Shown here piece by piece: positions 8,188 to 24,705 of a stretch of DNA of 64,000 bases (positions within the stretch are counted from its first letter, which is position 1; each line of letters opens with the position of its first letter). The notes under the pieces were generated by a model. That model did no database searches. It saw nothing but the letters and a program-made list of their open reading frames with translations, and was not told where the DNA came from. Position numbers and translations under genes: made by a program. Source of the stretch: Planctomycetota bacterium (GTDB taxonomy: Bacteria > Planctomycetota > UBA1135 > UBA2386); NCBI GenBank assembly GCA_046290465.1, contig JBKAGP010000001.1:672001-736000 (forward strand), given 5' to 3'.

Positions 8188-9585
8188 TCAGAGCCGCTTG
8201 ATGCGCAGGTTGCGGAACGCGACCTCGTCGCCGTGGTCCTGCAGCGCCATCCGGCCCTGCGTGGCCTTGCCGAACGGCCAGTCCTTGAACTTGCTCGCGG
8301 CGATCATGCGGTCCCACTCGGGGCCGGCGCAGGCGCAGTCAACGACCTTCTGTCCGTTGAGGAAGTGCTGCAGGCGGCCCTTCTGCACCACGATGCGCGC
8401 ATCGTTCCAGCAGCCGGCGGGCCGCGCGCGCTTGCCGGTGGGCGACACCAGGTCGTAGAGCGCGCCGACCGCGTGCTTGGGGCCGGGCTTGCGGGTCAGG
8501 TCGTCGAGCACCTGGAACTCCGGACCGCTGAAGTAGGTCTCGCGGCCCTCGTCGGTCACGTGCCACATGACGCCGGAGTTGCCGCCGCTCGCGATGCGGA
8601 ACGAGAACCGGAAGTCGAAGTCGCCGTACTGCTCGCGGCTGACCAGGTCGCCGCCGCCGCCGCCCGCCTCGTGCACGATCGCGGCGTCGCGCACCACCCA
8701 GCCCTGCTGCGGCAGCTCGTCGCTCTGGAAGCCGGTCCAGTGCTCCATCCGCCTGCCGTCGAACAGCGACACGAAGCCCTGCTGCTCCTCCTTCGCCGAC
8801 AGCCGGTTGAGCGGCGTCGGCGACAGCGTGACGGCGCCGGTCGCCGCCCATTCGCTGCCGCGCGCCAGCAGGTGGCGCAGCTGCGGGTCGTGCCAGGTGG
8901 CGTGGCTCGGCACCCGGTTGCGCCAGACGTGGCCGAGCGGCGTGTGGAACACGCGGCCCTCGCCGAACGTGGCCGCGGTCGCCATCGGTTCGTGGCGGCC
9001 GGTGCCGCCGGTCTTGGGGTCGCTGAACGCGCTCATCAGCACGCGGTACTCCGCGCCGGGCTTGTGCACCAGGCGGTGGTAGAGCTCGTCCGGGTGCATG
9101 CGCAGGTCGCGCATGCCCGCCGTGATCGGGTGGTGGTGGTCGATGCAGTGCACGTCGAACGGGTGGTAGCGGCCGTGGCCGGTGCCGCGGCGCCACAGCA
9201 GCCCGACCATCAGTTCGTAGTCGTGCCAGCCCTCGAACGCGTTGTTGGCCGCGTGCACGACGCTGACCCCGCAGCCGGCGCGCACCGCCGCCAGGAACGA
9301 GGTCTCGGCCGCCTCGCCCCAGCGCGGGCCGTTGTAGTCGAGCACGATCAGGTCGAGCTTGCCGTCGGCGTGCCGTGCCGCGACGTCCTGCAGGTCCTTG
9401 GCAGGTTCGTAGGTGATCTCCACCTCGAAGCGGCCGGTCTCCTCGAGTGCCGCTTTGATCTGCGGCGAGGTCCACTGCCAGTCGTGGTTGTTGGCGCCGG
9501 ACACGACCAGCGTCCGGATCGGCTGCTGCGGAGCCTGCGGCGCGCACAGCGCGAGCAGGGACGACACGAGGGTGGCGGCGAACAT
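8188..9585 (-). CDS. ThuA-like plus DUF1080 (3-keto-disaccharide hydrolase-like) secreted protein
   Basis: ThuA motifs SGANNHDW and GRVFHTPLGH. DUF1080 motifs SLFDG, GNSGV, EFQVLDD and LQDHG..V.FRNLRIK. Confidence 0.88.
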   Translation of the reverse strand: MFAATLVSSLLALCAPQAPQQPIRTLVVSGANNHDWQWTSPQIKAALEETGRFEVEITYEPAKDLQDVAARHADGKLDLIVLDYNGPRWGEAAETSFLAAVRAGCGVSVVHAANNAFEGWHDYELMVGLLWRRGTGHGRYHPFDVHCIDHHHPITAGMRDLRMHPDELYHRLVHKPGAEYRVLMSAFSDPKTGGTGRHEPMATAATFGEGRVFHTPLGHVWRNRVPSHATWHDPQLRHLLARGSEWAATGAVTLSPTPLNRLSAKEEQQGFVSLFDGRRMEHWTGFQSDELPQQGWVVRDAAIVHEAGGGGGDLVSREQYGDFDFRFSFRIASGGNSGVMWHVTDEGRETYFSGPEFQVLDDLTRKPGPKHAVGALYDLVSPTGKRARPAGCWNDARIVVQKGRLQHFLNGQKVVDCACAGPEWDRMIAASKFKDWPFGKATQGRMALQDHGDEVAFRNLRIKRL

Positions 9586-9665
9586 GGCGAGAACGGTAGC
9601 GCGACGGCGCGCGCGGTGGCCACGTCACGCTGGCGATGCTCGTCGCGTTCCTGTATCCCATCGCC

Positions 9666-11054
9666 ATGCAACCGTGGTCCGTGCCTGCGCTCGTCGTCAC
9701 TGCAGCGCTCGCGACGTCGGTGTGCGCCCAGCGCGACGCGCTGCAGCGCGCCGTCGACAACGCCGAGGCGCGCGGCGTGCGCACCGGCGTCGCCGTCTGC
9801 AGCTCGACCGGCGACGTGCTGTTCCGCCACCGCGCGGCCGAGTCGTTCGCGCCGGCGAGCAACATGAAGCTGTTGACCGCCGCCGGCGTGCTGCAGGGAC
9901 TCGGCGCCGACCACCGGTTCGAGACCGTGTTCTCCCTCGAGGCGGGCGAACTGGTGGTGCAGGCCGGCGGCGACCCGAACTGGATCGCCGAGACCGAGCA
10001 CGACCCGGAGCAGGTGTTCGCGCTGGTCGCGCGCGCGCTCGCCGAGCACGACGTGCACAGCGTGCGCGGGGTCCGCCTCGAGCCGGGGGTGTTCCACGGA
10101 CCGTCGCGACCGAAGACGTGGCCGCAGGACCAGCTCTACACCTACTACTGCGCGCCGACCGGTGGGTTCGTGCTGCAGCAGGGCACGTTCGTGATGGCGA
10201 TCGAGCGCAGCGGCGGCCGCAACGCCCGCGCCACGCTGCTGGCGCCGCCGGCCGGCTACGAGATCCGCGGCGGCATCCGCGAGGTCGCGTCCCAGCAGGG
10301 CGCCACCTACGGCGCCATCGACCAGGGCGGCACGATCCGCGTGCGCGGCAAATTCTACGAGAAGTCGCCGCGGGTCGAGATCCGGACCGCGGTCAACGAC
10401 CCCGACCGGTGGTTTGCCGACGCGTTGGCGCACCAGCTGCGCAAGAACGGCGTGCGCGTCGGTGCCGGCGGGCCGGCGCACCAGCACGGCGAGGTCTACC
10501 GGCACCGGACGCCGCTGCAGCCGGCGCTGCGGCGCATGCTCGAGGACTCGTCCAACTTCGACGCCGAGCAGTGCCTGCGCGTGCTCGGCGCGCGCACGCG
10601 ACGCGACGGCAGCCTGCTGGGCGGCAACGCCGCGCTGCGCGACCGCCTCGCCGACCTCGTCGGCCACGTGCCGGAGGGCGTCGTGATCGCCGACGGCTCC
10701 GGCCTGTCCAAGGAGAACCGGATCACTCCCGGCCTGCTGGTCGTCGCGATGTTCCAGTTGCAGCGCAAGGGGCTGTGGTCGCAGCTGCAGGCGTGCCTGC
10801 CGGTCGCCGGCCGCACCGGCACGCTGCGCAAGCGGTTCGTCGGCAGCGACCTGGTCGACAAGGTGCGCGCCAAGACCGGCTGGATCCGCGGCGCATCGTC
10901 GCTGTCGGGCATGGTCGAGCTGCCCGACGGCGAGCTGCGCTGGTTCTCGATCCTGATGAACTACGACCGCGGTCGCAACGGGCTGAACAAGGAGCTCAAG
11001 CAGATCCAGGAGGACATCGTCGCGGCGGTCGCGGCGATGCAGGTGCAGCGTTGA
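9666..11054 (+). CDS. dacB: D-alanyl-D-alanine carboxypeptidase/endopeptidase (PBP4, peptidase S13)
   Basis: PASNMK (SxxK), SSN (SxN), DGSGLS and AKTG (KTG). Signal peptide. Confidence 0.92.
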   Translation: MQPWSVPALVVTAALATSVCAQRDALQRAVDNAEARGVRTGVAVCSSTGDVLFRHRAAESFAPASNMKLLTAAGVLQGLGADHRFETVFSLEAGELVVQAGGDPNWIAETEHDPEQVFALVARALAEHDVHSVRGVRLEPGVFHGPSRPKTWPQDQLYTYYCAPTGGFVLQQGTFVMAIERSGGRNARATLLAPPAGYEIRGGIREVASQQGATYGAIDQGGTIRVRGKFYEKSPRVEIRTAVNDPDRWFADALAHQLRKNGVRVGAGGPAHQHGEVYRHRTPLQPALRRMLEDSSNFDAEQCLRVLGARTRRDGSLLGGNAALRDRLADLVGHVPEGVVIADGSGLSKENRITPGLLVVAMFQLQRKGLWSQLQACLPVAGRTGTLRKRFVGSDLVDKVRAKTGWIRGASSLSGMVELPDGELRWFSILMNYDRGRNGLNKELKQIQEDIVAAVAAMQVQR

Positions 11055-11875
11055 GCGAGCTGCAGCCGTTCGTCGACGAGGCGGTGCGGTTGGCGCACCT
11101 CGCCGGCGAAGAGCTGCTGCGCCAGCGCCGCAGCCGGGTCGCGTTCGAGACCAAGGGCGCGCGGCGCGAACTGGTCACCAGCGCCGACCGCGCCGCCGAG
11201 CACATCGTCGTCGGCGGCCTGCAGCGGGCGTTTCCGGAGCACGCGGTGCTCGCCGAGGAGGGCGTGCTGACGACCCAGGGCGAGCCGAGCAGCGCGTCGG
11301 AGTGGCTGTGGATCGTCGACCCGCTCGACGGCACCACCAACTTCGTGCACGACGTGCCGTTCTACTGCGTGGCGATCGCGTTGGCGCACCGCGGCGATCC
11401 GGTGGTCGGCGTGGTGCACGCGCCGGCGCTCGGCGAGACCTACGAGGCCAGCCGCGGCGGCGGGGCGCGGCGCACGCTGGCCGACGGTGCGGTGCGCGCG
11501 CTCGAGGTCAGCGCCACCGACGCGTTCGCCGACGCGCTGCTGGCGACCGGCTTCAGCTACAACCGCAACGAACCGGGCTGTGACGACAACTCGGGCAGCC
11601 TCGCCGCGATCCTGCCGCACTGCCGCGACCTGCGGCGACTCGGCAGCGCTGAGCTCGACCTGTGCCTGGTCGCCGCCGGCAGCTACGACGGCTACTGGGA
11701 ACGCTACCTGCAGCCGTACGACGTGGCCGCGGGCTCGGTGGTGGTGCGCGAGGCCGGCGGCCGGATCAGCGACTACCCCGGTGGCGACGACTGGCTGTTC
11801 GGCGACTCGGTGATCGCCAGCAACGGCCGGCTGCACGACGAGCTGCGCGAACGGCTGCTGCGGGCCACGCGGTAG
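11051..11875 (+). CDS. suhB: inositol monophosphatase family protein
   Basis: Motifs DPLDGTTNF, GSAELDLC and PYDVAAG. TTG start overlaps the dacB stop. Confidence 0.88.
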   Translation: MSELQPFVDEAVRLAHLAGEELLRQRRSRVAFETKGARRELVTSADRAAEHIVVGGLQRAFPEHAVLAEEGVLTTQGEPSSASEWLWIVDPLDGTTNFVHDVPFYCVAIALAHRGDPVVGVVHAPALGETYEASRGGGARRTLADGAVRALEVSATDAFADALLATGFSYNRNEPGCDDNSGSLAAILPHCRDLRRLGSAELDLCLVAAGSYDGYWERYLQPYDVAAGSVVVREAGGRISDYPGGDDWLFGDSVIASNGRLHDELRERLLRATR

Positions 11876-11930
11876 CGCGCGGCCCGCGGCCGACCGATCC
11901 TGGCGGCGGATCGCGCCGGCGCGCGCAGGA

Positions 11931-13193
11931 CTAGAAGTAGAGCGTCGCCTGCGCGTAGCCGACCTGACGCTGGTCGTCGTCGATCGCGTAGCCGGCGCCG
12001 ACGTGCAGGCCGGGCCGCACCATCTTGCCGACCAGCAGGTCGAACTCGAGTTCGCCGAGCTGGGTCGCCGCGCCGTCGCGGTCGAGGGTCAGCACGGTCG
12101 CGGTGCAGTCGAGGTCGAAGCCCGGCGTGAACTGCGCGCTCAGCTGGTTGGTGTCGAGGTCACTGCGCCAGATGCCGCCGTACTGGTGCAGCAGGCCGGC
12201 CGAGTTGAAGTCGGCAGGGTTGATGTGCAGCGCGCCTTCACTGTCGGTGCGGGTGAACGCGACCGCGCGCAGGAAGCCGCAGCAGGGCTCGTCGAAGGTG
12301 TATTCGAGGCGCGCGCGGTAGGCGGTGACGTCGTCGCCCATGTCGACCGAGCGGTGGGCGAACTGCGCCTCCCATTTGAGGTTCTCGGTGAAGTGGCCGA
12401 CGCCTTCGAGGCCGGCCCAGTTGTCGTTGGCGTTGCGCTGCACGTCGCCGTCGTTGGTGCCGGTCATGAAGTAGGCGTTGAGGGTCTCGAGCAGTCCGTC
12501 CTCGCAGGCGTTCCAGCGCGCGGTGCCGCCGGCGTAGCGTTCGCCGCCGCCGACCAGCTGGCTCTGCAGCGGACCGTAGTTGTCGAACGCGAACGCCTCG
12601 ACGTCGATGTCGCCGAAGCTGCGCGACACCCAGATGCCGGTGAACGCACCGGGGTACTGCAGGAAGTCACACGAGCCGAGCACCATGCCGTTGGCGAGGA
12701 AGTAGTTGCTGCGGCCGATGCGGATCCGTTCGTCGAAGCCGAACGCGTCCTCCAGCTGCATGTAGGCCTGCGCGATGCCGTTGAAGTTCTCGCGGGACAG
12801 GATGCCGTTCGGTCCCTGCTGGAACGGCGCGGCGTCCGAGTAGCCCTCGGCACCGGCCCAGACCTCCGAGTAGTTGAACTCGACGTAGGCCTGCGCCCAC
12901 TCGTTGACCTCGTAGTCGAGCTGCAGGCGCGTGCGCGTGCTGTAGTTGTCGTTGGCGTTGTAGGGGGCGTCGTCCGGGGTCTCGGCGAAGCGACCGCGCA
13001 GGCGGGTGTCGCCGGTGAACCGCAGCTTGTCGGAGCGCAACGTCAGGCCGGTGTCGACCCGTTCGACCTCGTCGCCGGGAGGGGCGAAGCTGAAGCAACG
13101 GTTCTGCGGTGAGTAGCACTGCTGCGCCACCGCGACCTGGGACACGCAGAGGACCGCAGCCACCGTGGCTGCGGTCGAGAGGAGCTTGATCAT
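11931..13193 (-). CDS. outer-membrane beta-barrel protein (alginate-export/porin-like)
   Basis: Signal peptide, R-x-R-x-x-x-E and RTRLQLDY strands, QAY...IRIGR, terminal aromatic residue (TLYF). Confidence 0.7.
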   Translation of the reverse strand: MIKLLSTAATVAAVLCVSQVAVAQQCYSPQNRCFSFAPPGDEVERVDTGLTLRSDKLRFTGDTRLRGRFAETPDDAPYNANDNYSTRTRLQLDYEVNEWAQAYVEFNYSEVWAGAEGYSDAAPFQQGPNGILSRENFNGIAQAYMQLEDAFGFDERIRIGRSNYFLANGMVLGSCDFLQYPGAFTGIWVSRSFGDIDVEAFAFDNYGPLQSQLVGGGERYAGGTARWNACEDGLLETLNAYFMTGTNDGDVQRNANDNWAGLEGVGHFTENLKWEAQFAHRSVDMGDDVTAYRARLEYTFDEPCCGFLRAVAFTRTDSEGALHINPADFNSAGLLHQYGGIWRSDLDTNQLSAQFTPGFDLDCTATVLTLDRDGAATQLGELEFDLLVGKMVRPGLHVGAGYAIDDDQRQVGYAQATLYF

Positions 13194-13269
13194 CTGGCTT
13201 GCTCTGCTGTGAGAGAGTGGCGGCCGATGCCGCGGAGCAAGTCGATGACGTGGAAGCTGGAGAGCGCCG

Positions 13270-13419
13270 TGAACTCTTGGCTCAGAAGTTCAGGGGGAAC
13301 CGACCGGCTCCCCGGCTCTCCACGGAACCTGCTCCGTGGATCAGCCAGGGGTTGCTTCACGTGTATGGAAGCAATGGGGTCTGGATCGGTCGGTCGATCA
13401 CGCGACGAACCATATCGCG
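13270..13419 (-). promoter_or_regulatory. structured 5' leader (six adjacent hairpins), candidate cis-regulatory RNA
   Basis: Stems TGAACT/AGTTCA, GGGGA/TCCCC, TCCACGGA/TCCGTGGA, TTGCTTC/GAAGCAA, GATCG/CGATC and CGCGA/TCGCG. Plus-strand A.C mismatches become G.U pairs on the minus strand. Confidence 0.45.
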
Positions 13420-13517
13420 CAGCCGCGACGGCGGACGTCGCGAATTGTCGCGAAGTTGTCCGGCAAAGCCTGCGTTGCCGTGCAGCGCTTGGGTTTGCCA
13501 TTGCATCGCCGCGCCGC

Positions 13518-13532
13518 TGGCAGGTTCAATGC
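13518..13532 (+). promoter_or_regulatory. possible sigma54 (-24/-12) promoter for the dsrE operon
   Basis: TGGCAGGTTCAATGC has GG-N10-GC spacing but is an imperfect match to TGGCAC-N5-TTGC. Confidence 0.3.
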
Positions 13533-13814
13533 GCGCTGTCCCGGAACGCGCACCCGCCGATGAACCACCCCCGCAGACATTGACACCCCTGAGCCCGGCC
13601 CGGGCGGGGTGCGGTCTGCGCCCCTCATCGGCCTCTCGCTGCCGTTCCGACGCAGGCGTAGCGCATCGCGCTCGCACGGCTTGGGGCGGGCGGGGTCGTG
13701 TGCCTTGGTCAGGCTCTCGGACGGACACGCGCCGTTCCGCTGGATCGATCCACACCGAGCCCCTTGACCCGAACCCTGAGCCCCGAACCCCGAACCCCGG
13801 GGCAAGCCGAAGCC

Positions 13815-14180
13815 ATGAGCAACACATTCTGCGTCACCATCACCGAGTGCAAGACCAACGAGGACAAGGCCACGCTCGGCTTCGTCGTCGCCAACGCCGC
13901 GGTCGGCAGCGAGAAGGAGACGATGGTCTTCCTGAGCGCCGACGGCGTCTGGGCCGCCGTGCAGGGGGAGATGGACAAGGTCGCGGCCGGCGAGCCGTTC
14001 GTGCCGCTGAAGGAGCTGGTCGACAAGTTCGTCGCCAACGGCGGCAAGATCCTGGTCTGTTCGCCGTGCATGAAGAAGCGCGGCATCACCGAGGACCAGC
14101 TGGTGGCGGGTGCGACCCCGGCCGGCGGTGCCGCGCTGGTCGAGTGGCTCGCCAACGGTTCGCCCAGCGTCGGCTACTAG
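13815..14180 (+). CDS. DsrE/DsrF-like family protein
   Basis: 121 aa. ATLGFVVANAA, VFLSADGVW and ILVCSPCMKKRGI. Confidence 0.88.
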   Translation: MSNTFCVTITECKTNEDKATLGFVVANAAVGSEKETMVFLSADGVWAAVQGEMDKVAAGEPFVPLKELVDKFVANGGKILVCSPCMKKRGITEDQLVAGATPAGGAALVEWLANGSPSVGY

Positions 14181-14190
14181 GGAACGGTCC

Positions 14191-14946
14191 GTGCTGACCC
14201 CCGAACAACTTGCCGGACTCGAGCCCGACCGCGTCTTCGACGGCGGCGCGCTCGACTGCGGATCGGGTCTGGTGCTGCTGATCCGCGAGAACATGCTGCC
14301 GGTGCCCGACGCCGGCGTGCTCGAGATCCGCAGCGTCGAACGCAGCGTGCGCGACGACCTGCCGCCGTGGTGCCGGATGGTCGGCCACGAGTTCCTCGGC
14401 GCGCTGCCGGGGGCGAGCCCCGAGCAGGCGCGCTACTTCGTGCGGCGCGGCGGCGGCGCGGCGATGCAGCAGGAGGCGGCCGCGCTCGAGCAGGACAAGC
14501 AGCGCGCGCGCGACTACCAGTGGCGGCTGCGGGCCCGTTCGTCGGCGCCGCTCGAGACGTCGGTCTACTGCCGCAACTTCCAGTGGCGGATCGGGCAGCC
14601 GGCCAGCTTCGAGGAGCAGGACGCCAACCCGTCGGCGATCGAGTCGCTGGTCGGAGCGCTGGCGGGGGACCTGGTGACCGGGTTCGCGGTCGCCGCATCC
14701 CGGGCAGGCCTGCAGGTCGACGACATCGAGTTGACCGCGCGGGCCCGCCTGCACGACGTCACCGCACACCTCGGCCTGGTCGAGGGCGACCCTTCGATCG
14801 AGTCGATCGAGGCGCGTCTGTTCGCGTCGACGTTCGACGACGAGGCGCGGGTGCGGGCGGTCTGGGACCAGACCGTGCGCCGGTCGCCGCTCGCTGCGAC
14901 GCTCCGCAAGGCCACCCGGCTCCACATCACCCTGGCAATCGTCTGA
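14191..14946 (+). CDS. TusA/SirA-like sulfur carrier fused to an OsmC-like domain
   Basis: TusA part FDGGALDCGSGLVL...DLPPWCRMVGHE. OsmC fold NPSAIESLVGALAGDL...DDIELTARARL...RRSPLAATL. Confidence 0.8.
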   Translation: MLTPEQLAGLEPDRVFDGGALDCGSGLVLLIRENMLPVPDAGVLEIRSVERSVRDDLPPWCRMVGHEFLGALPGASPEQARYFVRRGGGAAMQQEAAALEQDKQRARDYQWRLRARSSAPLETSVYCRNFQWRIGQPASFEEQDANPSAIESLVGALAGDLVTGFAVAASRAGLQVDDIELTARARLHDVTAHLGLVEGDPSIESIEARLFASTFDDEARVRAVWDQTVRRSPLAATLRKATRLHITLAIV

Positions 14947-14960
14947 CCGAGGAGAGGCCG

Positions 14961-16115
14961 ATGTTTTCCGTTACCCAGGTCGGCAGCTGGCCGCGTTCGC
15001 GCAAGCTGCTGCAAGCCCTCCGCGACAAGCAGCAGGGGCGTGCGAGCCGCGCCGAGTTCGAGGCCGTCGCCGACGAGGAGGTGCGTCGCTGCGTCGCGCT
15101 GCAGGTCGAGGCCGGGGTCGACGTGGTCGTCGATGGCGAGCATCGACGCGACAACTTCTACTCGTTCGTCACCGACAAGCTGTCCGGCACCCGGCTGATG
15201 TCGCTGGCCGAGATGCTCGAGTCGATGGAGGACAAGGCGGCGTTCGAGGAGATGCTCGAGACGCTCGACGTGCCGGCGTCGGCGATCCGCAACCCGACCT
15301 GCACCGGCAGGCTCGAACGGCGTGAACCGCTGGCGACCGAGGAGCTGCGGTTCGTGCAGCAGCTGACCGACAAGCCGGTCAAGGTCTCGCTGCCCGGGCC
15401 GTACCTGCTGACCCGTTCGATGTGGGTCGGGGCGTTCTCGCGCGCCGGCTACGACGACAAGACCGAGATGGGCGACGACGTGGTCCGGATCCTGCGCGAG
15501 GAGCTGATCGAACTGCGCGACGCGGGCGTATCGTTCGTGCAGTTCGACGAACCGGTGCTGACCGAGGTCGTGATGAGCGACGACAACGACCGGCGAACAT
15601 TCATGTGAGCCACCCTTGCTACCCGCCGTGATGCGGGTGCCGAACTGGAATACGCCGCGACGCTGCTCAACCGGGTCGTCGACGGCGTCGACGGGGTGCG
15701 TACGGGGGTGCACGTCTGCCGCGGCAACTGGAGCCGCCAGGAGGACGTGCTGCTGACCGGGGACTACGAACGGCTGCTGCCGGCCTTCCGCGCGATGCGC
15801 GTCGACCAGTTCGTGCTCGAGTACGCGACGCCACGCGCCGGCGAGCTGTCGGTCGTCGGCCGTGCCCTCGCCGATCGCGAGCTGGGGCTCGGCTGCGTCA
15901 ACCCGCGCACCGACGAGGCCGAGGATCCGGCGACGATCGTGGCGCGCGCCGAGGAGGCGCTGGCGTACTTCCGCCCGGAGCAGGTGTTCCTCAACCCGGA
16001 CTGCGGCTTCGGCTGCTTCGCCAATCGCTGCGTCAACGTCGAAGACCACGCGGTCCAGAAGCTGCGCAGCATGGTCGCGGCGGCGCGGCAGCTGCGGGAG
16101 CGGCACGGCGGATGA
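14961..16115 (+). CDS. cobalamin-independent methionine synthase II (MetE C-terminal-like) family protein with in-frame TGA, probable selenocysteine at residue 216
   Basis: VGSWPR, DGEHRR and QFDEP lie before TGA 15606-15608. The same frame continues to HVCRGN, LEY and NPDCGF (Zn ligands). 384 aa with read-through. SECIS-like hairpin follows; RBS GAGGAG precedes the start. Confidence 0.88.
15618..15640 (+). promoter_or_regulatory. bacterial SECIS-like hairpin
   Basis: GC[T]ACCCGC-CGTGAT-GCGGGTGC: 8-bp stem with a bulged U and a GU-containing loop, starting 9 nt after the UGA. Confidence 0.75.
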
Positions 16116-16726
16116 GCGCGTCGGCCGACGACGACGACGAGACGGGCGATCCGCGCACGGTGGCGGCGCTCGCCGACGCGGCGGCGTTGACCGGTGCTCC
16201 GTGCCGGCGCTGCAGCAGGGCGCTGTGCGGCCACGAAGCGGTCTACTGCCTGGTGCTCGGCTACAAGGGGGCACCGCACTGCCTGCCGTGCATCGCCGCG
16301 CACATGGGCGAAGCGCTCGCACCGCTGCGCGAACGTGGCTTCGAATACGTGCGGCACCACGACTGCTTCCTCACCGCGTGGCGGCACGCCGGCGACCTCG
16401 AGGGCCATGCCGGAGTCGATCGGCCGCCGTGCGTGTTCGCGCTCGACGAAGATCCCGCCGCTGCGGCGCAGGCGGGCGCAGGGCGCGATGCGGTGGCCGA
16501 GGCCCAACCGTCCGGGCATGCGAGCTGGGACGCCGGCGGCATGGGCTGTGGCGACCTCGTGCTCGAACTGCGCCAGCGGCTGGCGAAGCTGCCGCCGCGC
16601 GGCCTGCTGCACCTGATCGCCACAGACCCTGGTGCGCCGACCGACCTGCCCGCCTGGTGTTCGATGACCGGGCACACGCTCGAGTCCGCCGAGCACCCGG
16701 ACTATCGCATCCGCCGCCGCCCCTGA
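16112..16726 (+). CDS. Cys-rich (putative Zn-binding) domain fused to a TusA-like sulfur carrier
   Basis: CRRC..LCGH...HCLPC...HHDC followed by WDAGGMGCGDLVL...ATDPGAPTDLPAWCSMTGH. ATGA overlap with the upstream gene. Confidence 0.82.
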   Translation: MSASADDDDETGDPRTVAALADAAALTGAPCRRCSRALCGHEAVYCLVLGYKGAPHCLPCIAAHMGEALAPLRERGFEYVRHHDCFLTAWRHAGDLEGHAGVDRPPCVFALDEDPAAAAQAGAGRDAVAEAQPSGHASWDAGGMGCGDLVLELRQRLAKLPPRGLLHLIATDPGAPTDLPAWCSMTGHTLESAEHPDYRIRRRP

Positions 16727-16758
16727 ACGGCCGGCGGTCGCCTGCACGCGGGCTCGGC

Positions 16759-17121
16759 TCAGAGCCGCACGTTCTCGCGGCGCATCTCGCCGTCGTCCTG
16801 CTCGACCAGCCGCACGAAGTGCGCGCCGCGCGCGAGCGACGAGCGCTGCAGCAGCGGCCGCAGCACGCCGAGCAGCTGGTCCTCGTCGGGGCCGCAGAAG
16901 AACAGGATGCACTCGCCGCCGCCGAACTCGTCGCCGTCGTACTCGCCGACGCCCGCGTCCAGCACCGCCGCCTCGAGCTGCTCGGCCAGCAGTTCGATCT
17001 GGGCACGCTCTTCGTGCGTGCCCATGTTGCGGTTGCTCAGCCGGAGCACGACGAGCAGGTCCCGCTCGTCGGCGGGATCCTCGTCGTCGAAGCCGAAGTC
17101 GGGCAGGTTCTGGTCGCTCAT
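16759..17121 (-). CDS. small acidic hypothetical protein
   Basis: 120 aa with coding-like codon use; GVGEYDGDEFGGGECILFFCGPD. Confidence 0.75.
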   Translation of the reverse strand: MSDQNLPDFGFDDEDPADERDLLVVLRLSNRNMGTHEERAQIELLAEQLEAAVLDAGVGEYDGDEFGGGECILFFCGPDEDQLLGVLRPLLQRSSLARGAHFVRLVEQDDGEMRRENVRL

Positions 17122-17159
17122 CGCGAGCAAGTCTAGCCCGACGGGGGCCGGCCGCGCGA

Positions 17160-18296
17160 CTACGGGTCGAGCGTCAGCGTGTCGGCGGTGGCGACGATCG
17201 CGAAGGTCGTCGGGTCCTGGCTGACGGCGCTGGCGTAGGTCGTGATGCCGAGCAGGGCGGTGGCGCTGGGCAGGCCGAAGTAGACCGCGTCCCGGTCGTT
17301 GTCGACCGTGCCGTAGGCGAGCGGCAGCGACGCGACCGCAAGCGTCAGGCCGTCGACCGTGAAGTTGCTCTGCCAGCCGTTGGCCGGATCGATCTGGAAC
17401 GCGCCACACGCCGGCGCGGTGAAGCCGATCAGCAGGATGTTGGAGTCGCCCGGCTCGCCGGCGTTGCGGCACACGTAGCCCGGCAGGTTGGGGTCGTACT
17501 CGACGTAGGTCACGCGCAGGCCACCCGCGAACAGGTTGTTGTTGGCGTTGCCGCCGTTGCGGTCGTCCATCCAGGTGACGACCACGTCTCCGCGGGTGGT
17601 GACGGCGACCACCGCGTCGGCGTCGGCGTCGATCGCCGCCGGGTCGACCAGTTCGCAGTAGGTCCAGGTCGTGCCGAAGTCGTAGGTGAACGCGACCGCC
17701 GCCGGGTCGGCGCCGGCGATGTTGTCGACGAACGTCACCGCCGCGTAGCTGCCGTGGCAGTCGAGCAGCGGCGTGCTGGTGTTGCCCTGCGAGATCAGCG
17801 TCTCGGTCTGCAGGCCGGCGAGGAAGTCCGCGCCGCCGTTGGGGTCGGTGACGACGAACGTCTGGTTGGCGCCCGAGCGGTCGTCCTCGTAGCTGACGTA
17901 GAGCGCGCCCTCGGGCGTGCAGCCGACGGCCATGCCGTCCGAGTCGACGCCGGCGGGCGACATGCTGACCACGACCGGCGGCACGAACGTGCCCGGCGCG
18001 CCCGAGGTCGTGCTGAGGTAGAGGTAGCAGTCGTCGTCGCCGCCGCGGGAGTCCTCGGTGAACACCGCCACCGAGTAGTTCGGCGCCTGGCCGAACACGC
18101 ACAGCTGGCTCTCGCGCTGCGCGGCGAACGTGGTCGGCGCGGCGAACGAGGTCAGGTTCTGTTCGGCGCCGAAGGTCGCGCCGTCGTCGGTCGACACCCG
18201 GATGACGGTGTCGTTCCAGTTGTTGTTGCCGACGCCGGCGGCGGCGCGGTCGTCCTGCCAGCCGACCACGACCAGGTCGTCGACGCAGGCCACCAT
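17160..18296 (-). CDS. sialidase/BNR (Asp-box)-like beta-propeller protein, possibly 5'-truncated
   Basis: Asp-boxes STDDGATF and TYDFGTTW, repeated W/Y-x-DDR motifs. No signal peptide; start uncertain (18296 or 18383). Confidence 0.65.
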   Translation of the reverse strand: MVACVDDLVVVGWQDDRAAAGVGNNNWNDTVIRVSTDDGATFGAEQNLTSFAAPTTFAAQRESQLCVFGQAPNYSVAVFTEDSRGGDDDCYLYLSTTSGAPGTFVPPVVVSMSPAGVDSDGMAVGCTPEGALYVSYEDDRSGANQTFVVTDPNGGADFLAGLQTETLISQGNTSTPLLDCHGSYAAVTFVDNIAGADPAAVAFTYDFGTTWTYCELVDPAAIDADADAVVAVTTRGDVVVTWMDDRNGGNANNNLFAGGLRVTYVEYDPNLPGYVCRNAGEPGDSNILLIGFTAPACGAFQIDPANGWQSNFTVDGLTLAVASLPLAYGTVDNDRDAVYFGLPSATALLGITTYASAVSQDPTTFAIVATADTLTLDP

Positions 18297-18555: not shown

Positions 18556-21500
18556 TTGGCCACGAACTCGAAAACCACCTCCCGCAGGGCCGCTCCGGCG
18601 GCGCCGAAGCGGGCCCGCAAGAAGGCCCGCAAGAAGGCCCGCAAGAAGGCAGCTGGGGCGCCGGCGCAGGCGCCACAAGTCGTGGTGCGGGGGGCGCGTG
18701 AGCACAACCTGAAGAACGTCGACCTGGCGTTCCCGCGTGATTCGCTGACGACCTTCACGGGCGTCTCGGGCTCCGGCAAGTCGAGCCTCGCGTACCACAC
18801 GATCTACCAGGAGGGCCAGCGGCGCTTCCTGGAGAGCCTGAGTTCGTATGCGCGGCAGTTCCTCGGGCGCATGGAGAAGCCCAAGGTCGACCACGTCGAA
18901 GGCCTGTCGCCGACGGTCTCGATCGACCAGAAGTCGACCAGCCACTCGGCGCGCTCGACGGTCGGCACGCTGACCGAGGTGATGGACTTCCTGCGGCTGT
19001 GCTGGTCGCGGCTGGGCGAGCCGAGCTGTCCCGAGTGCGGCGCGGCGATCGAGTCGTGGTCGCCCGATCGCATCGTCGACGCGATCGTCGCCGAACACGA
19101 CGGCCAGGCCGCGATGGTGCTGGCGCCGGTGGTGCGCGAGCGCAAGGGCGAGTACCGCAAGGAGCTGGTCGAGTGGGCGCAGAAGGGCTTCGTGCGGGCG
19201 CGCATCGACGGCGTCGTGCGCCGCCTCGACGAGGACATCCAGCTCGAACGCTACGTCTAGCACACGATCGAACTGGTCGTCGATCGCCTGACGATCAAGC
19301 CGGAAGTGCGGTCGCGGCTGGCCGAGGCGGTCGAGCAGGCGGTGCAGCTCGGCTGTGGCCTGTGCACGCTGGTCGACGGCAAGGGGCAGGACGACCGGCT
19401 GTTCTCGACCCAGCGCAGCTGCCCGGACGGCCACGGCGCGCTGCCCGAGATGGAGCCGCGGCTGTTCTCGTTCAACAGCCCGATCGGCGCGTGCCCGAGC
19501 TGTGACGGCATCGGCGAGACGTTCGGTTTCGCGCCGGAGCTGTTGGTCCAGGACGAGAACAAGTCGATCCGCGACGGCGCGCTGCACGTGTTCACCGACC
19601 AGGGCCGGCTGGTCTACGGGCGGTTGACGATCGAGCACCTGCAGGGCGTGCTCGAGGCGTTCGGCGGCGACGTCGACACGCCGTGGAAGAAGCTCGGCAA
19701 GCGGGTGCAGAAGGTCGTGCTGCACGGCTCGGGCAAGAAGAAGTTCGAGTTCAAGTGGCAGCGCAAGACCGCGATGTTCACGACCTCGGGCAGCGACAAG
19801 GTCGCGTTCCCCGGCGTGCTCGGCCACCTGGAGAAGGTCTACCGGCCGTCGCGTGCGCGGCACCTGGATCGCTTCCGGGCCGCCACGCCGTGCGCCGAAT
19901 GCGACGGTTCGCGGCTGTCCGCGGCGGCGCGGGCGGTCACGTTCTGCGGCCGCACGTTGCCCGAAGTGCTGGCGATGTCGGTCGACGACGCGCTGGCGTG
20001 GGTGCGTGCGATCGAACTGAGCGGCAACGACCTGCGCATCGGCCGCGACATCCTCAAGGAGATCGACCGGCGGTTGACGTTCCTGGCGGACGTCGGCCTC
20101 GGCTACCTGACGCTGGCGCGCCGCGCCGCGACGCTGTCGGGCGGCGAGTCGCAGCGGATCCGGCTGGCGGCGCAGGTCGGTGCCGGCCTGCGCGGCATCC
20201 TCTACGTGCTTGACGAGCCGAGCATCGGCCTGCACGCGCGCGACCAGCAGCGGCTGCTCCGCACGCTCGAAGCGCTGCGCGACCGCGGCAACACCGTGGT
20301 CGTCGTCGAGCACGACGAGGAGACCATGGAGCGCAGCGACTTCCTGGTCGACGTCGGCCCCGAGGCGGGCGCGCACGGCGGCCGGGTGGTGGCGGCGGGC
20401 ACGCCCGACGAGGTCAAGGACAACCCCGCGTCGATGACCGGCCGCTACCTGCGCGGCGACGTGCAGGTGCCGATGCCGGCCGAACGCCGCCGCGAGGATC
20501 GCGGGGCGCTGCGGGTCCGCGGCGCGCGCCACCACAACCTCGACGGCCTCGACGTCGACCTGCCGCTCGGCCGGCTGACCGCGGTCACTGGGGTTTCGGG
20601 TTCGGGCAAGTCGACGCTGGTGCACCACGTGCTGGTGCCGACGATCAAGGATCACCTCGCCGACAAGGGCGTCGCACCGGCGCACTGCAAGGCGGTCGAC
20701 GGCATCGACCAGATCGACAAGCTGGTCGAGATCGACCAGAAACCGATCGGGCGCACGCCGCGCAGCAACCCGGCGACCTACACCGACGTCTGGACCCACG
20801 TGCGCGACCTGTTCGCGATGCTGCCCGAGTCGCGGCTGCGCGAGTACAAGAAGGGCCGGTTTTCGTTCAACGTCGCCGGCGGCCGCTGCGAGGAGTGCCA
20901 GGGGGCCGGCGTGAAGACGCTGGAGATGAACTTCCTGGCGCCGGTCGAGGTCGTCTGCGAGGAGTGCGCCGGCGCGCGCTTCCACGCCGACACGCTGGCG
21001 ATCCGCTTCAAGGGCAAGAGCGTCTACGACGTGCTCGAGATGACCGTCGAGGATGCCGCGGCGTTCTTCGCGGACCTGCCCAAGATCGCGCGCGGCCTCG
21101 ACGCGCTGCTGGCGGTCGGCCTCGGCTACCTCAAGCTCGGCCAGCCGTCGACGACGCTGTCGGGCGGCGAGGCGCAGCGGGTCAAGCTGGCGACCGAGCT
21201 GCAGCGTCCGGCCACCGGTCAGACGCTCTACATCCTCGACGAGCCGACCACCGGCCTGCACTTCCAGGACGTGGCGCGCCTGCTCGACGCGCTGCAGCGA
21301 CTGGTCGACGCCGGCAACAGCGTGCTGGTCATCGAACACAACCTCGACGTCGTGCGCGCCGCCGACCACCTGATCGACCTCGGCCCGGAGGGCGGCGTCG
21401 GCGGAGGCCGGCTGGTCGCGACCGGCACGCCCGAGGAGGTCGCCGACCTCGACGACTCGCACACCGGCAGGGCGCTGCGCGCGATGGGGCTCGGCAAGAA

Positions 21501-24500
21501 GCGCCGCCGCAAGGCCGCCAGGAAGGCCGGCAGCCAGGAAAGCGACAAGGGTGGGGCCGCGAGCGCGCGCAGCGCGCCGCCCGAGGCGATCTCGGTGCGC
21601 GGCGCGCGCACGCACAACCTGCAGGCGGTCGACTGCGACGTGCCGCTGGGCAGCTTCACGGTCGTCACCGGTCCGTCGGGGTCGGGCAAGTCGAGCCTGG
21701 CGTTCGACACGATCTTCCAGGAAGGGCAGCGCCGTTTCCTCGAGAGCATGTCGACGTACGCGCGCCGCTTCCTCGGCCGCATGGACCAGGCGCCGGTCGA
21801 CAAGCTCGACGGGCTCGGCCCCGCGATCGCGATCGACCAGAAGCGCACCGGCCGGAGTCCGCGCTCGACGGTCGCGACGACCACCGAGATCCACGACTAC
21901 CTGCGTCTGCTCTACGCGCGCACCGGCCGGCACCACTGCCCGACGCACGGCCAGGAACTGGTCGCCTGGTCGCCGAGCAAGGCGGCCGCGCACCTGGTGC
22001 AGCAGCACGCGGGGGCGCGCGCCTACGTGCTGGCGCCGGTGACCGTGCCCGTGCTGAAGGGCAAGGCGGCGGTGCAGTGGCGCGACGCGCTGCTCGAGCA
22101 GTGGCGCACGGCCGGCTTCGTGCGCGCGCTGGTCGACGGCGAAGAGCGGCGCCTCGACGACGACTGGGGGCGCAAGCTGCCCGGTTCGCTCGACCTGGTG
22201 GTGGACCGCACCACGCTGAAGGACCGCACCCGCCTGGCCGACGCGATCGAACAGGCGCAGGCGCAGACCCGCGAGCACGACGGCCAGGTCGCCGCGGTCG
22301 TGCAGGTGGTGCCGAAGGACGCCGAGCCGGAGCGGCACTGGTTCGGGGCCGAGCCGAGCTGCGAGCACTGCGACTACCGCGCGCCCAACGACCCGCACCC
22401 GCGCTGGTTCTCGTTCAACCACCACAGCGGCGCGTGCAGCAGCTGCCTCGGTCTCGGCAAGGTCGTGCTGTGCGCCGAGGAGCTGCTGGTCAACCACCCG
22501 CACAAGCCGGCGTTCGGCGGCGCGATCTCGCACAGGGGCGGCCACTTCACGTTCCTGACCGGGACCGACGGTTACTACCACGAGGTCGCGTCGGCGGTCG
22601 CCGAACGGTTCGGCTTCGAGCTCGAGCAGCCCTGGAACAAGCTGAGCAAGCAGGCGCGCGAGATCCTGCTGCGCGGCGCCGGTGACGAGCGGTTCGAGGT
22701 CGTCTTCAAGAAGGACGACGGCGGCCGCAAGCGCGAATGGCGCATGAAGGTCGCGTGGAAGGGCTTCGCCAGGCAGGTCGAGGACTGGTTCCACGGCCGC
22801 GACGCCGACCACGAGGACGGCGACGATCGGCTGGCCGCGGTGATGCGCAGCGAGCTGTGCCCCGTCTGTGAGGGCGATCGCCTGCAGCCGGGACCGCGGC
22901 ACGTGCGGGTCGGCGGCGTGCGCATGCCGGAGGTGCTGGCGCAGACGGTCGACCAGGCCAGCGAGACGCTGGCGAACCTGCAGCTCGACCGCACCGAGCA
23001 GCGCATCGCGGCCGACGTGCTCAAGGAGCTCGAGCACCGGCTGTCGTTCCTGCGGGAGACCGGCCTCGGCTACCTGTCGCTGGACCGCTCGGCGGCGACG
23101 CTGTCGGGCGGCGAGGCGCAGCGCATCCGGCTGGCGACGCAGCTCGGCAACAAGCTGGTCGGCGTGCTCTACGTGCTCGACGAGCCGACCGTCGGCCTGC
23201 ACCCGCGCGACACCGAGCGGCTGCTGAAGACGCTGCTCGACCTGCGCGACCTCGGCAACACGGTGCTGGCGGTCGAACACGACGAGGTGATGGTGCGCGC
23301 CGCCGACCACGTGCTCGACATCGGGCCGGGTGCCGGCGTGCGCGGCGGCAAGGTCGTCGCCAGCGGCAAGCCGGCCGAGATCGCCGGCAGCGGCACGCTG
23401 ACGGGCCAGTGGCTGAGCGGCACGCTGCCGATCGAACGGCGCGAGGCGCCGCGCGAAGCCGCCGGCTACGTCGAGCTTCGCGAGGTGTCGGTGCACAACC
23501 TCGACCGCGTCGACGTCGACGTGCCGCTCGGCGTGTTCACCGCGATCACCGGCGTGTCCGGCTCGGGCAAGTCGTCCTTGGTGATGGACGCGCTGGTGCC
23601 GCAGCTCAAGGACGGCAGCGTCGACGTCGTCTGGAACGACGAGGAAGAACGGCACCACCAGCTGATCGTGGTCGACCAGTCGCCGATCGGGGTGTCCCCG
23701 TCGAGCAACCCGGCGACCTACACCAAGGCGTTCGGGCCGATCCGCGAGCTGTTCGCGGCGACCCCGCTGGCGCGCCAGAAGGGCTTCGGCGCCGGTCGGT
23801 TCTCGTACCACGTCGCCGCCGGCCGCTGCGCCAACTGCGAGGGCAAGGGGCAGATCCAGGTCGAGATGCACTTCCTCGCCGACGTCTGGGTGACCTGCGA
23901 GATCTGCCGCGGCAAGCGCTACAACCAGGAGACGCTGACGGTCGAGTACCGCGGCAAGAACATCGCCGACGTGCTGGCGATGGACGTCGACGAGGCGCTG
24001 CAGTTCTTCGGCAACCACAAGAAGATCGTGCGGCCGCTGCAGCTGCTGCACGACGTCGGCCTCGGCTACCTGACGCTCGGCCAGCCGGCCAACACGTTCT
24101 CGGGCGGTGAGGCGCAGCGGATCAAGCTGTGCGCCGAGCTGCAGCGCCGGCCGAGCGCGCACACGATCTACGTGCTCGACGAGCCGACCACCGGCCTGCA
24201 CGCCGACGACGTGCAGAAGCTGCTGCGCGTGCTGCAGCGGTTGCTCGATCGCGGCGACTCGGTGATCTGCATCGAGCACCACCTCGACGTGATCGCCGCC
24301 GCCGACCACGTGATCGAGATGGGGCCCGAGGCCGGCGACGGCGGTGGACGCTGCGTCGCCGCGGGAACCCCCGAAGCGCTCAGCAGGATCCAGGCCAGCC
24401 ACACCGGCCGGTTCCTGAAGGACCACCTGCAGGCGCTCGCCACCGCGGGCGCAACGGCCAGCGAGAAGGCGGCGCCGCGGAAGAAGGGCGCTCGGAAGAC

Positions 24501-24705
24501 GGGCGCGACGAAGAAGGCGCCCGCGAAGAAGGCCCCCGCGAAGAAGGCCCCCGCGAAGAAGGTCCAGAAGAAGAAGGTCCAGAAGAAGAAGGCCCAGTCC
24601 AAAAAGGCCCAGACGAAGAAGGCCCCGAACACCACGGGGCAGCAGCAGAAGGCTCAGGGAGCGCGGCGCAGCGCGTCGCGCAAGACCCGAGAGGAGATCG
24701 GATGA
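18556..24705 (+). pseudogene. uvrA: double-length excinuclease ABC subunit UvrA interrupted by one in-frame TAG (19258-19260)
   Basis: ORFs 18130..19260 and 19306..24705 share a frame. Four Walker A (GxSGSGKS) and four SGGE signatures plus Zn fingers. Reads ERYV*HTIELVVDRL across the stop. Pseudogene versus sequencing error is unresolved. Confidence 0.85.
24511..24630 (+). repeat. 15-bp coding tandem repeat (KKAPA/KKVQK) x8 in the UvrA tail
   Basis: AAGAAGGC(G/C)CCCGCG x3, AAGAAGGTCCAGAAG x2 and three further variants. Confidence 0.85.

Follow-up and report, generated by a model that had tools for sequence, protein, structure and literature searches.

A putative selenocysteine-containing, MetE-like zinc enzyme encoded beside sulfur-carrier-like genes in a Planctomycetota genome

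Thioredoxin-fold redox proteins and enzymes of the formate dehydrogenase type make up most of the known bacterial selenoproteins. In the fdhF type, the bacterial SECIS element sits just 3' of the UGA codon, and the E. coli element has a bulged U and a GU loop. A 2026 review (PMC13188914) tabulates 119 selenoprotein families, and a DsrE-like UxxC family and an OsmC-like selenoprotein family are listed in its available text.

The C-terminal catalytic barrel of MetE (PDB 2NQ5, 3L7R, 1T7L and 4ZTX) is a Meth_synt_2 domain with a His-x-Cys/Glu/Cys zinc site and Ser, Glu and Asp residues for homocysteine; the roles of the MetE zinc ligands and homocysteine-binding residues are given in the accessible part of PMC7857596. 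MesA to MesD, as far as that part of the same paper describes them (Price et al. 2021, PMC7857596), and the YxjG-like protein 1YPX are single barrels with the same substrate-binding residues and without a folate domain.

The locus described here belongs to a window, which is the whole stretch of 64,000 nucleotides of Planctomycetota DNA that was analysed. Its MetE-like gene very probably encodes one selenoprotein of 384 residues, in which UGA codon 216 is translated as selenocysteine (Sec) and which is a single-barrel, zinc-dependent member of the MetE family with the Sec in a loop on the catalytic face. The domain, the zinc site and the homocysteine residues are those of the MetE barrel. Unlike MetE, the predicted protein is one barrel of 384 residues without the folate-binding N-terminal barrel, contains the putative Sec, and is longer after strand 5 by a loop of some 13 residues that holds the invariant segment RTFM[C/U]A. 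It shares with MesA-MesD and 1YPX the single barrel, the lack of a folate domain and the substrate-binding residues, but it reaches no family cut-off, in a comparison made with NCBIfam models whose correspondence to the Mes families is not fixed, and 1YPX has a gap at the Cys/Sec column. In contrast to MesA-MesD, the scanned neighbours include no corrinoid or MesX (DUF1852) partner, and are DsrE-, TusA- and OsmC-like instead.

As in the fdhF-type selenoproteins, the UGA aligns with Cys, is followed by a 3' hairpin, and stands in a genome with SelA, SelB, SelD and tRNA-Sec. Unlike in those selenoproteins, the bulged U is not conserved, and the family is absent from the 119 tabulated ones in the available text of the review. 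The operon partners share Pfam families and carrier cysteines with the TusA and DsrE sulfur relay proteins, and differ from the DsrE- and OsmC-like selenoproteins of PMC13188914, as its available text presents them, in carrying Cys and never TGA.

The interrupted frame and its Cys/Sec column

The gene and its internal codon are placed as follows.

14961..16115, + strand: gene of the MetE-like, single-barrel zinc enzyme; 384 codons, the 216th being UGA, with the stop inside the coordinates
15606..15608, + strand: in-frame TGA, putatively read as Sec216; TGA in 59 and TGC or TGT in 64 of 123 orthologues

Read directly from the sequence, the frame opens with the ATG at 14961, closes with the TGA at 16113-16115 and contains just one further TGA; its read-through translation is ...RRTFM-U-ATLATRR... 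around codon 216. A preliminary description of this DNA had seen two ORF fragments in one frame separated by that TGA; they indeed make up one 384-codon Meth_synt_2 gene, and the zinc-ligand motifs that it had placed downstream of the TGA, namely HVC (H251, C253), LEY (E287) and PDCG (C348), are all so placed. The assignment to the MetE-like (methionine synthase II) family is upheld by the match to Pfam Meth_synt_2 (PF01717; 114.1 bits against a cut-off of 21, E 1.1e-32, profile positions 2-323 of 324). TGA is the regular stop of 13 of the 20 genes of the window with well-behaved ORFs, where it is the commonest stop, which argues against a general reassignment of TGA.

All 123 orthologues were read at column 216, and none has any residue other than the Sec codon or Cys (0/123). 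Fourteen of the 40 related genomes searched gave a match to the MetE-like gene. The four orthologues with 75-85% identity have the TGA exactly at codon 216, followed by 12 identical residues, and the seven homologues with 42-55% identity have TFMC or SFMC at the column. For the phylum, 401 genomes were evenly drawn; an orthologue at E ≤ 1e-60 was present in 61, and among the 43 loci read, 9 have TGA and 34 have Cys. TGA flags in three genomes (G267, G281 and G288) were rejected as Sec forms, the column being Cys in all three. The best 80 of at least 586 species-genome loci have TGA in 50, TGC in 25 and TGT in 5; since these 80 were picked by their likeness to a Sec form and the orthologues are mutually related, none of these Sec and Cys counts are frequencies.

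The database matches exhibit the same pattern. In the alignment of the best full-length matches listed, which includes the window's own protein entered with C for U, Cys occupies the column in 120 of 121 rows and the remaining row has a gap. When residues 1-215 are used as the query, all of the 120 best matches listed are gene calls of 213-222 aa ending in RTFM, which their sources name methionine synthase II, methyltransferase or hypothetical protein, and never selenoprotein. The homologue check that had been proposed at the TGA column, which set Cys against Trp or Arg, therefore gave Cys throughout (120/121 rows; 64/64 non-TGA orthologues), and relatives with TGA plus a hairpin, for which the same check was to look, exist.

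These short gene calls might also be taken at face value. The TGA would then be a true stop, and the locus either a pseudogene or a split gene that gives a 215-aa N-terminal protein and a separate C-terminal piece. Public gene calls of 215 aa, named methionine synthase II or hypothetical protein, agree with this; the GTG at 15696 could open an ORF of 139 aa, and split MetE genes are known (in the accessible part of PMC7857596). However, the 29 codons between the TGA and the GTG at 15696 are in frame and conserved, with E228, A232 and L235 invariant across the Sec and Cys forms. The break would moreover fall between barrel strand 5 and the zinc site of the AlphaFold model, homologues whose frame is uninterrupted have Cys at the TGA column without exception, and the arrangement persists over about 10 phylum-level labels. 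A true stop is therefore very improbable.

These labels are the depositors' own record labels, of which about 10 at the phylum level occur among the Sec forms: Planctomycetota, Acidobacteriota, Verrucomicrobiales, Bacteroidetes and many Desulfobacterota, and further Calditrichia, Krumholzibacteriia, Eisenbacteria, Fibrobacteraceae and Gammaproteobacteria. In a tree of 43 sequences (IQ-TREE), two state changes are forced and the Sec forms fall into two separate clades with supports of 100/99 and 100/100, which differ in the sequence downstream of the TGA. In a tree of 122 sequences with columns 216-228 masked (FastTree), five state changes are needed, and four Cys forms, labelled Verrucomicrobia or "bacterium", are nested within the large Sec clade. 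The groups so labelled have proteins of 65-85% identity and almost the same hairpin, which suggests gene transfer among them.

The hairpin 3' of the UGA and the selenocysteine machinery

A candidate SECIS element follows the TGA.

15618..15640, + strand: candidate SECIS hairpin, core stem 15622-15626 / 15633-15637, loop 15627-15632

Its sequence is GCUACCCGC-CGUGAU-GCGGGUGC. A hairpin starting 9 nt past the TGA had been described, as had the T-ending codons CTT GCT, CGT GAT and GGT, and both are found so. In isolation the hairpin folds at -11.7 kcal/mol. Of 51 Sec forms, 49 keep its core, a 5-bp stem (CCCGC/GCGGG) and a 6-nt loop (CGNGAY), and each of the five pairs is retained in 47-51 of the 51. 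The loop begins 18 nt past the UGA and its second nucleotide is G, which presumably fits the spacing and loop rules of bSECISearch. In four rows a G-C pair of the stem has become G-U, with Val in place of Ala in the protein, and in one row the closing pair has gone from A-U to G-C; two Bacteroidota Sec forms (L086 and L089) break the core stem. The Cys forms lack the hairpin, even those with nearly the same peptide. The likeness to the fdhF element that had been pointed out holds in part: the bulged U and the lower pairs are present at this locus, but they are not conserved, the bulge and two lower G-C pairs being found in 28 of 51 Sec forms.

The three genomes of the second Sec clade (loci L057, L065 and L066 in G355, G124 and G300) read THTFM-U-GVL at the UGA; both the peptide that follows it (GVLAAKASPEGEL) and the small hairpin (GCCC-GGA-GGGY) differ from those of the main clade.

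Of the 12 codons that follow the TGA, only the five of the stem show no variation among the six closest orthologues, with a background invariance of 26% for codons with an invariant residue; this is only suggestive, because the stem was picked beforehand and the sequences are kin. In this GC-rich DNA, shuffled sequences fold about as well as the region 3' of the TGA (z = -0.24 and -0.16), and strong hairpins also follow the ordinary terminal TGA of the gene. Folding energy was therefore dropped as evidence for a SECIS element. Covariation in the hairpin is almost nil, with one double change in 408 cells and the observed score reached in 61 of 500 shuffles, and Rfam gave no match around the TGA at E up to 10. 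In the aligned sequences, it is conservation and not folding energy that appears to exceed chance for the TGA column and the stem nucleotides.

The genome that was searched consists of one contig of 6.59 Mb. The presence of sel genes in it had been proposed as a check, and selA (453 bits), selB (354 bits), selD and tRNA-Sec (72.8 bits) were all found, each of the four above its curated cut-off. The selD gene has an in-frame TGA of its own, in the motif SSAG-U-AAK near the N-terminus, which we take to be the known N-terminal Cys/Sec site of SelD. It is adjacent to selA outside the window (G000:C1:1309619-1311945, - strand); the SelD-like matches inside the window are ThiL and PurM and were set aside. 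Among other genomes, selA is present in all 10 that were flagged with TGA and also in all five Cys-form genomes tested, so that its co-occurrence does not discriminate Sec from Cys forms.

The TGA at 15606-15608 is reproducible outside the assembly, as it is retained in the contigs of three independent runs from three studies (X2, X3 and X5); those of a further run, X4, leave out 15606-15699. The only nearby variants in the run contigs are at 15611 and 15617, both synonymous and outside the stem. It is hardly probable that the TGA is an assembly error, or that the UGA is read through without selenium, with Cys or Trp inserted by a near-cognate tRNA. Nothing specific favours either, and against them stand the TGA in the three runs, in 59 orthologues and at the end of at least 120 short database entries, the conserved 3' hairpin in the TGA forms only, the full Sec machinery of the genome, and the use of TGA as the commonest ordinary stop in the window.

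Recoding of UGA216 as Sec is strongly supported, as well as computation allows. The tests named beforehand as able to refute it, and run, concerned the residue at this column in homologues, the Sec machinery of the genome and the TGA outside the assembly; each of them favoured Sec. The UGA would be recoded by SelB and tRNA-Sec, guided by the short GC-rich 3' hairpin, and Sec216 would stand in for a Cys that is invariant in the clade.

Zinc site, loop and operon partners

The zinc ligands are encoded downstream of the putative Sec codon.

15711..15719, + strand: His251-Val-Cys253 codons, two Zn ligands, in 123 of 123 orthologues and aligned with the MetE H-x-C
15819..15821, + strand: Glu287 codon, Zn ligand, in 122 of 123 orthologues (a gap in the other row, a partial sequence) and aligned with the MetE Glu
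16002..16004, + strand: Cys348 codon of PDCG, Zn ligand, in 122 of 123 orthologues (a gap in the other row)

In addition, S9, E60 and D196 align with the homocysteine-binding residues of MetE and are invariant among the orthologues, so that none of the seven residues (S9, E60, D196, H251, C253, E287 and C348) varies among the 123 orthologues, gaps in partial rows excepted. The substrate pocket accordingly looks like a homocysteine pocket, judged by these aligned positions. Besides the zinc ligands, column 216 alone is an invariant Cys in the Cys forms. Two further Cys codons, 352 and 357, lie past the last zinc ligand (window 16014-16031, GFG-C-FANR-C-VN). The first of them, four residues after the ligand, occurs in 53 of the 59 Sec forms against 4 of 64 Cys forms, so that C352 may pair with Sec216 in the main Sec clade.

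The AlphaFold model has a pLDDT of 86.8 and a pTM of 0.90; the loop 209-221 falls below 50 and joins a short helix that follows strand 5 to the next helix of the barrel. From the geometry of the barrel, the loop with residue 216 probably lies on the catalytic face. In HMMER alignments that include the MetE structures and the YxjG-like 1YPX, none of the solved homologues has Cys at column 216; opposite RTFM[C/U]A, the MetE structures and 1YPX have either a gap or something other than Cys. The loop, probably mobile, is an insertion relative to the solved MetE structures, in an enzyme that keeps the four zinc ligands and the three residues aligned with the homocysteine-holding ones and lacks the folate-binding N-terminal barrel.

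The profile searches place the protein outside the curated families. No NCBIfam cut-off is reached, the best match being a methionine synthase equivalog (177 bits against 406). The canonical MetE model TIGR01371 gives 97.7 bits against a cut-off of 929.95, and the N-terminal folate barrel Meth_synt_1 gives 21.6 bits, below its cut-off of 27, for a protein of 384 aa. By these scores, the predicted enzyme is in none of the described core methionine synthase families. The members of the clade appear to be distinct single-barrel MetE-like zinc enzymes, the hallmark of which is a putative mobile-loop Cys/Sec.

Four genes of the + strand lie close together, with the MetE-like gene in third place; the other three are the following.

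13815..14180, + strand: DsrE-like protein, 121 aa, Pfam DsrE 54.9 bits against a cut-off of 22.7; start taken from the sequence
14191..14946, + strand: TusA-OsmC-like fusion, 251 aa, Pfam OsmC 30.4 bits against a cut-off of 27.5
16112..16726, + strand: 204-aa protein, Cys-rich towards the N-terminus and TusA-like in its C-terminal domain, Pfam TusA 37.1 bits against a cut-off of 28.6

The start of the last gene overlaps the stop of the MetE-like gene (ATGA). In the fusion, the TusA-like domain bears the motifs DCGSG and PWC and its TusA match is weak, as is the match of the fusion to the OsmC-related (seleno)protein model NF041052. Among 24 aligned copies, C23 and C61 of the fusion are invariant and the OsmC-like domain has no invariant Cys; judged from the OsmC motif, the domain is presumably without a peroxidatic Cys. 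The C-x-P-C motif is found in 47 of the 47 DsrE-like neighbour copies read, with Cys in all and never TGA. Thus the partners belong with the sulfur-relay proteins by scores over the DsrE and TusA cut-offs, by C-x-P-C and by the invariant C23 and C61. The Cys-rich part at 16112-16510 (CxxC...C...C...CxxC) has no Pfam or NCBIfam match, and a homologue of it occurs in 6 of 50 Sec-form loci.

In the 50 Sec-form loci, the upstream partners do not change order or strand: 45 loci have a DsrE-like, 44 a TusA-like and 46 an OsmC-like gene. The succession small TusA, DsrE-like, TusA-OsmC, enzyme is seen in 44-46 of the 50; most Sec-form loci other than the present one have a small TusA gene upstream of DsrE in place of the downstream TusA-like gene. 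The same gene order also occurs beside Cys forms inside the phylum. In the 30 Cys-form loci of other phyla, 25 have an OsmC-like neighbour and only 2 have DsrE and TusA; therefore, the carrier link may be specific to one clade. Three Cys-form loci from Nitrososphaerota, Acidimicrobiia and Armatimonadetes records (L124, L129 and L136) share an order of OsmC-like, acyl-CoA-dehydrogenase-like, PF12974 binding-protein-like and MetE-like genes, which differs from the TusA/DsrE operon.

A Sec-form locus in a gammaproteobacterial MAG (L122) has a PF02574 homocysteine S-methyltransferase upstream, with PF12974 and PNP_UDP_1 proteins near. It also contains a tRNA-Sec (L122:7502-7593, + strand; 59 bits, above the gathering score) about 2.3 kb downstream of the Sec-form gene.

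Rfam has no match of any kind at 11000-17500 of the window and gives only one tRNA and one tRNA-Sec in 15 related loci, with no riboswitch, SAM and cobalamin types included, in either. A scan for promoters and terminators yielded nothing useful. The genome has a full MetH (1689 bits), and the MetE-like gene is its only PF01717 gene.

Elsewhere in the window, an ORF of 1814 residues at 19261-24705 (+) has duplicated UvrA-type domains (UvrA_DNA-bind, UvrA_inter and ABC_tran) and is about twice what we take to be the length of UvrA, and an ORF of 478 residues at 8188-9624 (-) fuses a ThuA domain with a 3-keto-disaccharide hydrolase domain.

Possible function and meaning for the family

Several roles may be considered for an enzyme of this kind. 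The reading that we tentatively favour, at somewhat under even confidence, is that the loop Sec or Cys is a catalytic nucleophile in a sulfur/selenium or redox relay with a homocysteine-like substrate. The loop residue would pass sulfane sulfur, selenium or a disulfide/selenosulfide, in one direction or the other, between the carriers encoded in the operon and a homocysteine-like aminothiol bound at the zinc. The housekeeping role of methionine synthase would be left to MetH and not to the MetE-like enzyme.

The main alternative is a methionine (or selenomethionine) synthase that works without folate and independently of B12, in which the loop Sec/Cys takes part in methyl delivery or in the protection of the zinc thiolates, and the carriers repair or reduce the loop. 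The retention of all homocysteine-binding residues and zinc ligands is in keeping with such a role, as are the methionine synthase models among the top NCBIfam matches, the PF02574 and PNP_UDP_1 genes that adjoin the Sec form in L122, and the existence of MesD-type core families with unknown methyl donors (in the accessible part of PMC7857596). However, the best equivalog score stays far below its cut-off, the scanned neighbours include no gene for a corrinoid protein or DUF1852, no SAM or cobalamin riboswitch lies upstream in the window or in the 15 loci, and MetH is already present in the genome. A methyl thioether or selenoether would also be a poor methyl donor, on general chemical grounds. 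A synthase of this kind is therefore possible but rather unlikely. Less likely still is that the loop Sec is a protein-borne super-nucleophile that replaces cob(I)alamin or folate and shuttles methyl groups or sulfane sulfur/selenium between the carriers and zinc-bound homocysteine.

That MetE-like proteins are not among the known selenoproteins had been suggested in the preliminary description, and no prior mention of a MetE-like selenoprotein was found in the available text of the 2026 review (PMC13188914) and of a 2022 review (PMC9312934), in the available parts of the BSepDB paper and its supplement, in the deep-Sep paper and its supplements, or in a preprint on eight new families. This points to a selenoprotein family, and a chemistry, that are so far undescribed. 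The family is common: at least 120 database clusters end at the Sec codon, with labels of Planctomycetota, Acidobacteriota, Desulfobacterota, Verrucomicrobiota, Bacteroidota and others. Because its members are annotated throughout as short "methionine synthase II" or hypothetical proteins, selenoproteome counts and methionine-pathway reconstructions miss it.

Sec in a zinc alkyltransferase of the MetE fold would add a new structural and chemical class to the bacterial selenoproteins. The invariant loop Cys/Sec, together with the fixed carrier operon, provides a testable handle on the function of a folate-free MetE-like enzyme. If the loop Sec were in fact a super-nucleophile in place of cob(I)alamin or folate, the family would represent a cofactor-free chemistry of sulfur and selenium amino acids that has been spread by gene transfer across many phyla.
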